DNA from: a virus
IMG/VR virus record: IMGVR_UViG_3300037246_001354
Span: 1-40,674 of that record
DNA length: 40,674 nucleotides
Reading direction: 5' to 3' (one strand)
Shown here: one piece after another, positions 4,015 to 9,830 of the stretch
Numbering within the stretch: position 1 is the first letter of the stretch
Layout: each line of letters begins with the position of its first letter
Notes under the pieces: model-generated
Databases searched by the model: none
The model's input: the letters and a program-made list of their open reading frames with translations, nothing else
Told to the model about the DNA's origin: nothing
Program-made: the position numbers and the translations under genes

Positions 4015-4206
4015 TTAATATACTCCTTGGTGGTCTCCTTGGTGGTCACCTTTCTGTTCAATTTTAGGTTGATATTTATTTCTTAGATTTTCTCTATAAT
4101 CTAAGAAATTTGGTATCACAATTGCTGCTAATATAGCAATTATAGCAATTACAATCATTAATTCAATCAACGTAAACGCTTTTGTATTTTTTATCCATTT
4201 TACCAT
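4015..4206 (-). CDS. type IV pilin / pseudopilin-like small protein (63 aa)
   Basis: N-terminus MVKWIKNTKAFTLIELMIVIAIIAILAAIVIPNF is a near-textbook class III (prepilin) signal plus hydrophobic helix, FTLIELMIV..AILAAIAIP. Position -1 is Ala rather than the canonical Gly. Confidence 0.5.
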   Translation of the reverse strand: MVKWIKNTKAFTLIELMIVIAIIAILAAIVIPNFLDYRENLRNKYQPKIEQKGDHQGDHQGVY

Positions 4207-4952
4207 TTGTCTTCTATGCTCCCAAATCTGTCATCTTCTTGTGCGAACCGATTATTGTCGTCTGATGCCTTTGGTGGGCGTGGAGTTTTAATAGATTTCT
4301 CTTTACTTACTGTTTTATTAAACTCACTCTTTGCCTTATTGATAAGTGCTTCGGCTTCTGGTTTTATATTGTTATATGCTTCCTTTACTTTATTAATTAT
4401 CTCATTGTCGGTTGAGGTATCGACAACCTCGGCTGTTTTATCTGCCTTATCATCACCACAGAACCAAAATAATAACATACCCCAAAATATTATCGTTCCT
4501 ATGCCTATTCCTCCACTTTTACTAGACAATTTAAATCTCCTCTTCTTTTTCTTTCTATTTTTAAAAAATGTCTTTTTCGATGATGTAAATCTTGGATGTG
4601 ATGGATTCGTTGGCTTAGTTAAATTTTGCCAATCAAAACTACCACTTACCGTATGAGTATGTGATGGTCCCATTACTTTTGTGGCCGCTCGACGTGCACT
4701 CTCGGCTATTTTTTTTGCATCCCGGGTCATTCTTTCCGCATCCGCTTTTATTCTTCTCGCATCCGCTTTTATTCTTTCCACATCCGATTTTATTCTGCGA
4801 GTTCCATTAGCAAGTGAATCCCTATCCGTGTGCCACCCATCACGGTCAACTCTTTTAAAGTACTCTTTTGTGCCCCATCTTCTAGCTAGATCATTTTCTG
4901 TGGTCCAAACGTCATCAAATTTATCTGGCTTGTCTCCTATATGTGGTCCCAT
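4200..4952 (-). CDS. membrane protein with heptad repeats (250 aa)
   Basis: Three RIKADAR heptads, encoded by a 21-nt x3 DNA repeat at ~4748-4810. Poly-basic KNRKKKKRRFK followed by a TM helix GIGIGTIIFWGMLLFWFCG. Confidence 0.45.
   Translation of the reverse strand: MGPHIGDKPDKFDDVWTTENDLARRWGTKEYFKRVDRDGWHTDRDSLANGTRRIKSDVERIKADARRIKADAERMTRDAKKIAESARRAATKVMGPSHTHTVSGSFDWQNLTKPTNPSHPRFTSSKKTFFKNRKKKKRRFKLSSKSGGIGIGTIIFWGMLLFWFCGDDKADKTAEVVDTSTDNEIINKVKEAYNNIKPEAEALINKAKSEFNKTVSKEKSIKTPRPPKASDDNNRFAQEDDRFGSIEDKW
4748..4810. repeat. 21-nt x3 tandem repeat (RIKADAR heptads)
   Basis: gcatccgcttttattcttctc / gcatccgcttttattctttcc / acatccgattttattctgcga. Confidence 0.6.
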
Positions 4953-4978
4953 TACTTCACCTTTCTGAATAATAAAGT

Positions 4979-5010
4979 TAAGGTGAGAGCGGTTAAGCTC
5001 TCACCTTTTC
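4979..5010. terminator. bidirectional rho-independent terminator-like hairpin
   Basis: Perfect inverted repeat GGTGAGAGC-ggttaa-GCTCTCACC followed by a T-run on both strands. Lies immediately downstream of the stop of the vault-like gene (minus strand). Confidence 0.5.
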
Positions 5011-5012
5011 AT

Positions 5013-8427: not shown

Positions 8428-8645
8428 TTTAAATTCTCCAACCTTTTAATTAAATTATTAATATAATTTGCCACTGCTGGATATTTCGGATGGTCGCGCA
8501 AAAAGATAATCTCGTCATTTTGTAATAGACCAATTAATGATGGTCTACTAATAAACATTCCATGACCTGAATCTATAATAAATTCCATGTCATTCGGTTG
8601 TCTCTTCCGTGGATGTGGTTGCTCATCCATTTCTGTCCTGCTCAT
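8424..8645 (-). CDS. hypothetical protein (73 aa)
   Basis: ORF from the track, in the operon. Confidence 0.35.
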   Translation of the reverse strand: MSRTEMDEQPHPRKRQPNDMEFIIDSGHGMFISRPSLIGLLQNDEIIFLRDHPKYPAVANYINNLIKRLENLK

Positions 8646-9081
8646 ATACGGCTATTGTTGCCTGTGCGGCTCTTTCAGCCCATCGCGGATCATCTTCATT
8701 TAGAGTGATTTCAGAGTAGAAGTCCTCTATTGTATGGCCACGAATTTTATATGGTGTTGTGGCATCAAAGTCAACAGAAGTATGTTTTAACTCATGCCTC
8801 ATTAACCTCTTTTTATCTTCTGGGTTTATTAAACTCCAACACTTTATATCAAGCCTGATAACATAGTCAAATCCCTCGTCAGTGCCTGATTCATCAATCA
8901 TAAAAAACCTAGTCAATTCATTAGGTTTTTGAATTGAACCAAGTACTATCTTACCACCAGTCATTCTCTTTTTGTTATCAAATATGATTTTAATGTTACA
9001 TCCCGCCAGTTCTGGAAAATGTTCTTCTCTAACCGTGCGCATTATCTCATAGGCTTCTTCACTACCATCATCAAACCTCAT
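8623..9081 (-). CDS. putative HExxH zinc-metallopeptidase-like protein (152 aa)
   Basis: Motif LMRHELKHTSVDFD (HExxH) in a small globular protein; this resembles SprT-like or phage 'putative metallopeptidase' domains. Motif-level call only. Confidence 0.35.
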   Translation of the reverse strand: MRFDDGSEEAYEIMRTVREEHFPELAGCNIKIIFDNKKRMTGGKIVLGSIQKPNELTRFFMIDESGTDEGFDYVIRLDIKCWSLINPEDKKRLMRHELKHTSVDFDATTPYKIRGHTIEDFYSEITLNEDDPRWAERAAQATIAVYEQDRNG

Positions 9082-9142
9082 TTACAAATCCTCCATATTT
9101 TTATTTTTATTTTATTATACTACAAATTTGAGCACTTGTAAA

Positions 9143-9637
9143 TTATATCTTAAATAGATCAGGATCAATGTGTTCAACTTCTTTTTTTACTGGACGGTTT
9201 TTTAAAAGTTTTTCTTGTATTTCACTTCTTGTCATATTATTCATATGTACATTTGCTAGTAACTTTTCCAAAACGCTTTCAAGAGCTTCTATTTTGTTTA
9301 TCGTTTCTTCCATTGATATCCACTTTCCATTTATTTTTACTTCTATATTATCTTTAAATCTTACCATTTCTTCTCCTTCAAAGGTTGCTCTACCCCATAT
9401 CGGAGCTGACCAACCTCCATTATCAGCAACTATGCTATGTTCGTGTTGATGATTTGTTAACACATGACTGTGTCCTGGTGTGTCCATTTCTACTAATTCT
9501 CCATTTGGTCCTACTGAAAACCACTTTTGTACTTCTGGTGATACTGAAGATGTTGTATACCATGTAGTTGCATTACTATTAGTACTGTCTGTGCTATATG
9601 TCGTATTAGTTCCGTTCGCCCATCCCATGTTTACCAT
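9143..9637 (-). CDS. diverged tail-collar-like paralog (164 aa)
   Basis: DTPGHSHVLTNHQHEHS, preceded by a G/S/T/N-rich segment, resembles the PSHSHTLNSHTHT block of the three collar paralogs at 11.7-13.4 kb. Coiled-coil C-terminus. Confidence 0.35.
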   Translation of the reverse strand: MVNMGWANGTNTTYSTDSTNSNATTWYTTSSVSPEVQKWFSVGPNGELVEMDTPGHSHVLTNHQHEHSIVADNGGWSAPIWGRATFEGEEMVRFKDNIEVKINGKWISMEETINKIEALESVLEKLLANVHMNNMTRSEIQEKLLKNRPVKKEVEHIDPDLFKI

Positions 9638-9830
9638 TTTTTATTTCCCCCTCCAATAGTGCTGGTATGTCAAATTTTTGCATCCAAATACAATTCCAAC
9701 ATAAAGTTGTTAAGTTTAACTCTTCCTTACATTCTCCTTTGTATATGCACCAGTGTTTTTTATCTAAATTTATTCTTATTTTTTGCATCGGTTTAAATTT
9801 TGAGCCTAGTCCTGTCGGTCCACTACTCAT
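9606..9830 (-). CDS. small Cys-containing hypothetical protein (74 aa)
   Basis: ORF from the track. Its RBS/start cassette GGGGGAAATAAAAAATG is identical to that of the downstream gene. Cys pattern C-x5-C...C-x2-C. Confidence 0.3.
   Translation of the reverse strand: MSSGPTGLGSKFKPMQKIRINLDKKHWCIYKGECKEELNLTTLCWNCIWMQKFDIPALLEGEIKNGKHGMGERN

Follow-up and report, generated by a model that had tools for sequence, protein, structure and literature searches.

Hyperplastic regions, in which non-core open reading frames (ORFs) set between conserved core genes differ among relatives, are a reviewed feature of T4-related phage genomes (PMC2993671, PMC2984593). Major vault protein (MVP) homologs from phages were first described in two gut Caudoviricetes (bioRxiv 10.1101/2023.11.10.566534), and at least one earlier source mentions bacterial MVP homologs (PMC3762200). 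The locus reported here is new as a member of these two known kinds. It was found in a virus-derived stretch of 40,674 nt (IMG/VR record IMGVR_UViG_3300037246_001354, the whole of which is hereafter called the window), where the genes of the Mre11-like and Rad50-like subunits of the recombination nuclease, 47 and 46 in T4 nomenclature, are separated by a block that includes an MVP homolog. As in other plastic regions of T4-related genomes, non-core ORFs here lie between conserved core genes and differ among relatives; the difference is that most of this block has been inherited stably and in conserved order across deep divergence.

The interval between genes 47 and 46

A first-pass annotation made from the sequence of the window had noted some nine genes splitting gp47 from gp46, and indeed nine ORFs, and no more, occupy positions 4015..9830, leaving a gap of 5814 bp. 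Its remark that the two genes are adjacent in T4 needs correction since ORFs 46.1 and 46.2 intervene there over 443 bp, a region ca. 13 times smaller than the block of the window; every block protein was compared to these two small T4 products and none showed similarity. Another 133 T4-like loci, taken from IMG/VR and metagenomes, had a median ORF-to-ORF distance of 253 bp between the two genes and a maximum of 3052 bp, with 129 loci below 1 kb and 50 in which gp47 and gp46 abut or overlap. These data support the view that, compared to the T4-like superfamily, the block has been inserted.

We regard it as likely, with a probability of roughly 0.8, that the interval carries a lineage-specific accessory gene set which was acquired anciently in an uncultured, deeply diverged T4-like branch and which is modular rather than a single island. 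The evidence comes from relatives found in IMG/VR, JGI, ENA and Logan metagenomes, one by a gp47 scan of IMG/VR (L001), five by a metagenome scan (L095, L096, L097, L098 and L099) and others by looking up MVP homologs (L085/L086, L094, L091 and L175/L176). ORFs were called in these loci and compared all against all by BLAST, with the outcome given in Table 1, in which WIN designates the locus of the window and L-numbers the other loci compared. In WIN, the transcription order from 47 to 46 is F2, F4, F0, F12, F5, F8, MVP, F9 and F10.

Table 1. Gene content of the 47-46 interval in the window and its relatives
Locus	Content	Remark
WIN	47, F2, F4, F0, F12, F5, F8, MVP, F9, F10, 46	
L001	47, F2, F4, F0, F5, F3, F8, MVP, F9, F10, 46	
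L085	47, F2, F4, F0, F5, F3, F8, MVP, F11, F9, F10, 46	
L175	F2, F4-like, F0, F5, F3, F8, MVP, F9-like, 46	F4-like ORF: a short SHVH motif is all it shares with F4, without BLAST match; F9-like gene: matches weakly (36% over 98 residues, E = 1e-6)
L094	47, F2, F4, F0, F5, F3, MVP, F11	contig ends after F11; no F8
L091	F0, F5, F3, MVP	contig cut at both ends; no F8
L095	47, F2, F4, F0, F13, F3, F8, F9, 46	no MVP, F10
L096	47, F2, F4, F0, F5, F3, 46	no F8, MVP, F9, F10
L097	47, F2, F0, F15, F3, 46	
L098	47, F16, F0, F17, 46	

Two layers can be distinguished. The 47-proximal backbone (8266..9830), which comprises F2, F4, F0 and the small ORFs F5, F3 and F12, is conserved in the lineage, while individual modules of the 46-proximal cargo (4015..8264), made of F8, MVP, F9 and F10, are kept in some relatives and missing in others. 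The differences that a variable island should show between close relatives, with genes present, absent or replaced, were thus observed for 4015..8264, with replacement also in the slot of F12, and were not observed for F0, F2 and F4 (8623..9830). The order of the cargo remains unchanged down to 46% gp46 identity (L175), and L001 and L085 hold every family in order, F12 apart. Sharing of genes and order among relatives is precisely what the first-pass annotation had named as speaking against its single island, and that claim falls. What stands of the proposed accessory island is the insertion relative to the T4-like superfamily and the variability of the 46-proximal part; its unity and recency do not stand, since the block is old, layered and syntenic.

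Pairwise identities allow these relatives to be arranged. Relative to the window, gp46 identity is 90% in L095, 62-63% in L001, L085 and L096, 46% in L175 and 41% in L097, and gp47 orthologs within the lineage range from 77% down to 47%. The window and L095 form a clade A (gp46 90%, gp47 77%), and L085 and L096 (gp46 86%, gp47 88%) form with L001 and L094 a clade B that is 62% identical to clade A in gp46 and 68% in gp47; L175 and L091, whose F0 is 64-70% identical to that of the window, fall outside both. MVP occurs in clade A, in clade B and in these outliers; L095 and L096 lack it, and each has an MVP-bearing genome as its sister: MVP is found in WIN and not in L095 in one pair, the cargo in L085 and not in L096 in the other. 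Moreover, MVP identities run parallel to those of the backbone protein F0. Between the window and the clade B orthologs (L001, L085, L094) they are 76-78% for MVP and 81-85% for F0, within clade B 79-83% and 81-87%, and between the window and L091 or L175 62% or 59% for MVP and 64% or 70% for F0, respectively. Such a pattern is consistent with one old acquisition, after which descent was vertical and MVP was lost independently at least twice, F8 having been lost separately in L094 and L091 and F10 being of limited distribution. Acquisition of the cargo would then predate the split from L175 (46% gp46 identity), and individual modules would have been deleted later and independently in some descendants.

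The opposite view, implied by the first-pass annotation, is that of a recently acquired island, horizontally transferred or mobile and loaded with host-interaction or anti-defence cargo. No other T4-like locus has such a gap, L095 and L096 lack parts of the block and the closest non-phage MVPs are bacterial, all of which would suit such an origin, as would the raised overall GC content of the MVP gene (0.40 vs 0.32-0.34). However, the GC content at third codon positions (GC3) is 0.32 for MVP, 0.32 for gp47 and 0.31 for F0, so the raised value sits in codon positions 1 and 2. No integrase, transposase or homing endonuclease gene was detected in the block by Pfam and PHROG scans, no direct or inverted repeats flank it, and no PADLOC hit was counted. 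Composition, repeats, mobility genes and congruence thus all fail to indicate a recent or mobile acquisition, which the constant gene order down to 46% gp46 identity had already largely refuted and which we hold to be very improbable. Conserved order, co-divergence of MVP with the backbone, uniform GC3 and the lack of repeats and mobility genes therefore argue for ancient, losable cargo and not for a recent insertion. More generally, a large insert between core genes may look fresh from one sequence and yet be old, layered and partly fixed.

Several points weigh against an ancient, vertically inherited gene set. All relatives are metagenomic contigs, of which several are short and cut inside the block, so that F9 and F10 are unscorable in L094 and L091, and the phylogeny consists of pairwise identities and one unsupported neighbour-joining (NJ) tree. 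What looks like vertical inheritance with loss could stem from recombination among co-infecting relatives. At the nucleotide level, the deletion junction of L095 is ambiguous and the one between F8 and F9 is similar to both candidate parents; the junctions of L095 and L096 show no direction of change, the sequence upstream of gp46 being conserved in all genomes. Finally, L097 and L098 may have lost the cargo or may never have had it.

The features of the region are listed in Table 2. The minus strand is the coding strand of every gene in the first 14.5 kb of the window, where both nuclease subunits lie on the same strand downstream of gp55, and T4-type proteins of the baseplate and tail are encoded in its remainder. 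The branch is remote from known phages: gp47 is 28-33% identical to cyanophage gp47 (33% being the best value), gp46 is at most 24% identical to its counterparts in known phages, and a megablast of the first 14 kb against INPHARED returned no match. The lineage is a previously undescribed T4-like branch, whose core proteins share only 24-33% identity with their counterparts in cultured phages, and its marker is the HExxH metallopeptidase encoded between the Mre11-like and Rad50-like genes.

Table 2. Features of the 47-46 interval and its borders (window coordinates)
Feature	Position	Strand	Basis
gp46, Rad50/SbcC-like nuclease subunit, 726 aa	1828..4008	-	PHROG 77 at 2e-82; SMC_N; downstream boundary of the block
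F10, prepilin-like peptide, 63 aa	4015..4206	-	PF07963, TIGR02532
F9, bitopic membrane protein (predicted), 250 aa	4200..4952	-	alignment and hydropathy
GC-rich hairpin, 11-bp stem	4980..5007	-	folding energy and same position in relatives
MVP homolog, 843 aa	5013..7544	-	MVP_shoulder PF11978, 1.3e-26
F8, predicted lipoprotein, 232 aa	7566..8264	-	lipobox G24-C25
F5, DUF4177 protein, 53 aa	8266..8427	-	PF13783
F12, ORF without homolog, 73 aa	8424..8645	-	ORF call
F0, HExxH metallopeptidase (PhageMetallopep), 152 aa	8623..9081	-	PF18894, 9e-18
Sigma-70-like promoter, TTTACA-N17-TATAAT	9114..9142	-	consensus match upstream of F0
F4, HxH-stretch protein, 164 aa	9143..9637	-	alignment; no family match
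F2, four-Cys protein, 74 aa	9606..9830	-	alignment
gp47, Mre11/SbcD-like nuclease subunit, 345 aa	9823..10860	-	Metallophos; upstream boundary of the block
gp55, late sigma factor	10814..11278	-	Sigma70_r2; just upstream of gp47

The vault protein homolog

Within the cargo, the largest gene encodes a genuine full-length member of the major vault protein family. Its shoulder (SPFH-like) domain, at residues 522-632, scores 93.3 bits with PF11978 against a cut-off of 25, and phmmer aligned residues 469-811 to residues 467-843 of rat MVP nearly position for position (E = 5e-12). No similarity was found by phmmer in the N-terminal part, where MVPs carry some nine beta-repeat domains and where a single repeat reached 27.5 bits with Vault_3, just below the cut-off of 28.8; the length ahead of the shoulder domain equals that of rat MVP and the protein as a whole is colinear in length with eukaryotic MVP (843 aa vs 861 aa). 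An AlphaFold2 (AF2) model built on 46 homologs is confident at residues 460-765, which correspond to a last repeat, the alpha/beta shoulder domain and one helix of 136 residues, the continuous cap helix (residues 633-768, pLDDT 76-89), an element by which MVP oligomerises laterally; residues 1-321 of the N-terminal half have a pLDDT below 50. With this model, the best 12 Foldseek matches were vault chains from rat, rabbit and human, aligned at full length (E = 3e-17 to 4e-14; 863 columns for 4v60). A second tier, restricted to the shoulder domain and the following helix, consisted of flotillin, QmcA, HflK/C, prohibitin, stomatin and erlin (E = 1e-7 to 1e-4). The protein differs from such membrane SPFH cages, among them HflK/C-FtsH and QmcA-YbbJ, by an MVP-type N-terminal region of ca. 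500 residues and by having no transmembrane (TM) segment; as hydropathy analysis revealed no hydrophobic segment at all, it is probably cytoplasmic.

Like the gut-phage MVPs of the 2023 preprint, this protein is closest to bacterial MVPs. More than 6775 homologs of the family were found, those of bacterial metagenome-assembled genomes (MAGs) reaching 52-55% identity over 96% of the length, and in two bacterial loci the gene is solitary among unrelated housekeeping genes. MVPs that are 58-60% identical occur in a second phage lineage that is not T4-like (L087, L090, L092, L093) and has a different neighbourhood, and in the unsupported NJ tree the MVPs of known phage context, including those of the second lineage, form one clade. 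None of the other block proteins was found in L081-L084. What sets the MVP of the window apart from known MVPs is its vertical inheritance within a T4-like lineage, at a fixed 47-46 locus and with a conserved hairpin of its own. It is also better conserved than gp46 (76% vs 63% and 59% vs 46% in two comparisons). That the gene has been retained across deep divergence, strongly constrained, in one fixed place and accompanied by regulatory elements of its own, is stronger evidence for a viral function of MVP than the two reported cases from gut-phage MAGs.

In the second phage lineage, the genes near MVP (L087, 10001-19228, as well as L090, L092 and L093) encode CreA, YqeY, a DUF2828+DUF7788 protein, a Band_7/SPFH protein and OmpA, and RNA-repair-type genes for RtcB, an RNA ligase and RlaP lie on the other side of MVP; the DUF2828 protein had no match among PDB sequences. 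Homologs 41-43% identical were also located in three unannotated huge-phage records of 462-735 kb (LR756500.1, 20946-23363; LR756501.1 and LR756503.1, 17398-19617), so that MVP recurs in several unrelated phage groups.

As to function, a cytoplasmic MVP might, by means of its SPFH-like shoulder domain and its long cap helix, self-assemble into a ring or cage of large size, in the manner of the vault, with its 39-fold half-vaults, and of other SPFH proteins. We tentatively propose, as a possibility well short of an even chance, that the phage protein is made early and builds a vault-like cage in the infected bacterium, which may dock to the inner membrane via F9 and which would have been kept for so long because something is sequestered or shielded in it. 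Against this proposal, assembly is read from a model whose N-terminal half has a pLDDT below 50. If it were true, a virus-encoded vault would provide a tractable prokaryotic route to the unsolved function of vaults. Other vault components were not seen: no TEP1 (TROVE)- or PARP4-like domain was present among the window ORFs scanned, and no Rfam family or tRNA was found in the 40.7 kb window, so vault RNA was not found in what is only part of the genome.

A more specific suggestion would have the cage act as a sponge or a store, either of nutrients or of small molecules (NAD+, ADP-ribose or signals derived from these), serving as an anti-defence device or an auxiliary metabolic gene (AMG). An AMG role for phage MVP has been speculated upon (bioRxiv 10.1101/2023.11.10.566534), a pocket in the shoulder domain of the human vault binds NAD+, ADP-ribose and ADP (PMC12280208), and the sigma-70-like promoter upstream of the gene unit would, by analogy with T4, provide early expression. 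Nonetheless, the six human keyhole-loop residues checked, R504, K506, R507, P508, H509 and R511, correspond to T, K, S, D, D and L in the phage protein, so that only one of six (K506) is kept, and the human NAD+ pocket is, like the N-terminal repeats, which are unrecognisable by sequence, a point of difference from eukaryotic MVP. The bacterial and phage family has instead its own motif, S-TGTPK-DD (residues 502-510), in which S502, P506 and K507 are invariant in 46 sequences; this acidic loop points to another conserved function at that site. A human-type NAD+/ADP-ribose pocket was rejected on this basis. With one of six pocket residues kept, the sponge idea is without sequence support and we consider it quite unlikely.

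Backbone genes and expression signals

All lineage members found, even the one at 36% gp46 identity, carry F0 in the 47-46 interval, and the profile of F0 gave no match outside the lineage in the other T4-like loci searched; F0 is a lineage marker. By sequence, F0 is a member of the PhageMetallopep family of predicted zinc metallopeptidases, with 65.1 bits for PF18894 (cut-off 23.7) and H96, E97, H100 and H116 of the HExxH region invariant in 9 sequences; a profile search yielded no relative of solved structure. In F2, four cysteines (C28, C34, C44 and C47; CX5C...CX2C) are invariant in 8 sequences, including those of L097 and L175. The first-pass annotation had spoken of small Cys proteins in the plural, and a Cys cluster was found in F2 only. 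F5 matches DUF4177 just above the threshold (PF13783, 25.7 bits vs 25) and has orthologs in L001, L085, L094, L096, L091 and L175, whereas F12 has no homolog in any relative and is known from the window only. The slot immediately after F0 holds an unrelated small ORF in the window (8424-8645, 73 aa), in L095 (11140-11421, 93 aa) and in L097 (8231-8458, 75 aa). This slot is a replacement hot spot for very small genes.

F4 evolves fast, its orthologs being 28-41% identical. It had been described as a diverged collar paralog, a label that did not hold: resemblance to three paralogs encoded at 11718-13434 is confined to a common 43-residue HxH stretch (E = 2e-6), and neither F4 nor the three paralogs matched Pfam Collar or any other Pfam or PHROG family. 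These three tandem genes (11718-12275, 12289-12846 and 12859-13434) encode proteins of 185-191 aa that are rich in HxH repeats, with a raised GC content (0.40), and lie directly downstream of a radical SAM gene (13403-14404, minus strand). They gave no match in Pfam or PHROGs, and one of them, also compared to PDB sequences and INPHARED, gave none there either. The radical SAM gene and the three paralogs are conserved as a set in L001, L095 and L096 and could correspond to a modifying enzyme with its substrates, or the paralogs to a fibre-like protein family. An exact 17-nt repeat, GGGGGAAATAAAAAATG (minus strand, 9635-9651 and 9828-9844), gives F4 (ATG 9637) and F2 (ATG 9830) identical ribosome-binding site (RBS) and start contexts.

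Five genes, from F0 through F12, F5 and F8 to MVP, form a unit between a conserved promoter and a hairpin, with F0 first and MVP last. The promoter, located in the 61-bp spacer upstream of F0, agrees with the sigma-70 consensus at 11/12 positions and is followed by a GGAGG RBS, and both its hexamers are invariant in L001 and L085. In the window, TTTAC-N16-18-TATAAT occurs 4 times vs 0.35 expected, the other three copies also preceding gene starts. The hairpin starts 5 nt past the MVP stop codon, in a 63-nt stretch with a folding energy of -23.5 kcal/mol (z = -6.5). It occupies the same position in all six MVP-bearing T4-like loci, with differing stem sequences and with a U-tract after it in L085 and L091, and L095, which is without MVP, is also without the hairpin. 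It would be terminator-like or act as a 3' stabiliser.

A host sigma-70 RNA polymerase would accordingly be expected to transcribe F0, F12, F5, F8 and MVP from 9142-9114, with the hairpin (5007-4980) ending or stabilising the transcript and F9, F10 and gp46 following on a separate or read-through transcript. From the consensus elements and T4 practice, we infer that this unit is expressed early. It counts against this timing that the consensus promoter is its sole basis and that read-through from gp55 and gp47 is possible. The T4 late promoter TATAAATA was found 5 times in the scan vs 6.9 expected, with no occurrence in the block; as it is not enriched, no late class was assigned.

Envelope-targeted products and flanking genes

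Membrane or envelope targeting had been proposed for several products of the block, and with it a role at the cell envelope or in superinfection exclusion; signals were confirmed in exactly three, namely F8, F9 and F10. F8 has a hydrophobic segment at residues 8-26 and a lipobox [VMIQ][MTQA]GC, as in bacterial lipoprotein signals, and is a predicted lipoprotein. The lipobox cysteine (C25) follows Gly (G24) in 14 close homologs and Ser in 3 distant ones, and two of three further cysteines (C191 and C223) are invariant in the whole family. The predicted fold is all-alpha, in a mediocre model (pLDDT 65), and no fold match in PDB was better than E = 8. F9 has one TM segment (residues 147-165), preceded by an N-terminal basic region with RIKADA-type repeats and a KKKKRRFKLS stretch, and a conserved C-terminal tail of ca. 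85 residues ending in DKW; by the positive-inside rule, its N-terminal ca. 145 residues are predicted to be cytoplasmic. Among the relatives it occurs in L095, L001 and L085, and L175 has a weak match. The 14 nt that form the start context of the gene, AAGTAATGGGACCA on the minus strand (4944-4957), are repeated in frame within it at 4665-4678, at residues KVMGP, where they may be an internal start or the trace of a duplication.

F10 consists of the leader MVKWIKNTKA|FTLIE, one hydrophobic helix (hydropathy peak 3.23) and a hydrophilic tail of ca. 30 residues. The prepilin N-methylation motif with Glu at +5 is recognised by PF07963 (36.2 bits, cut-off 21.2) and TIGR02532 (32.3, cut-off 16.3), six PHROG families with prepilin N-termini are matched, and FTLIE is invariant in three orthologs. 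Position -1 is Ala in all three (KA|FTLIE) where a prepilin would have Gly, and no globular pilin domain was detected, all equivalog models scoring far below their cut-offs. Orthologs of F10 were identified in L001 and L085 only (62-64%), the gene being absent in L095, L096 and L175.

F8 and F9 are confined to this lineage, their families comprising 17 and 19 proteins, respectively, among 5.8 billion. They evolve quickly (53-56% identity between the window and L095, vs 90% for gp46 and 91% for F0), which would fit proteins of the host interface, and F8, F9 and F10 are all missing from L096. Superinfection exclusion is a role of phage envelope proteins such as Imm and Sp of T4 and the lipoprotein Llp of T5. 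The three products resemble these, and phage pilin-like proteins (e.g. PHROG 3433), in being small membrane, lipoprotein or prepilin-like products with a predicted early promoter or in an early region; they differ in that F8 and F9 have no sequence or fold similarity to known exclusion proteins and in that F10 has Ala at -1 and no globular domain. No match to known exclusion, defence or lysis families was obtained for F8, F9 or F10 in PHROG, Pfam or PADLOC, the sole PADLOC match, of F9 to JetA, being at chance level (E = 0.0036). From their signals, F8 as a periplasmic lipoprotein, F9 in the inner membrane with its N-terminus inside and F10 as a substrate or decoy of the host prepilin machinery may alter the envelope of the infected cell. 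Such a role would be plausible for F8, F9 and F10, three products out of nine, and leaves out the main gene, MVP.

A lipoprotein and a bitopic membrane protein that co-occur, and that are directly adjacent in L095, recall the outer- and inner-membrane partners of a spanin pair, in which case the block would be a lysis module. F9, however, has a central TM segment and ca. 145 residues predicted to be cytoplasmic, unlike i-spanins, and F8, with 232 aa, is far larger than o-spanins. In addition, L096 lacks both genes, L094 and L091 lack F8, no holin or endolysin gene lies nearby and no PHROG spanin was matched. The spanin pair was ruled out by topology, size and dispensability, and hardly any likelihood is left to it.

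It is also unlikely, although less so than the sponge, that F8, MVP, F9 and F10 work together as one system, in which, for instance, an MVP cage in the cytoplasm is docked to the inner membrane via the cytoplasmic N-terminal domain of F9 with F8 and F10 acting on the periplasmic side, comparable to HflK/C or QmcA-YbbJ. In favour of it, F8-MVP-F9 stands in unchanged order from WIN to L175, membrane SPFH cages are the next-best structural matches after the vault, and F9 has a predicted cytoplasmic repeat domain of ca. 145 residues. Yet MVP occurs without F8 in L094 and L091, F8 and F9 occur without MVP in L095, and the second phage lineage and bacteria carry MVP without these partners; the hairpin separates MVP from F9, and F8 and F9 evolve far faster than MVP. 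Since each module occurs without the others, they would act separately and not as one machine.

At the 47-proximal border, the gp55 and gp47 ORFs as called share 47 nt (10814-10860), and the true gp47 start may be further downstream since gp47 was called 18-19 residues shorter in the relatives. At the other border, a GGGGG immediately 5' of the gp46 ATG is kept in all relatives. Finally, a 62-aa ORF with a CxxC...CxxC zinc-ribbon motif (1686-1874, minus strand) shares 47 nt with the 3' end of gp46 and is 85% conserved in L095.

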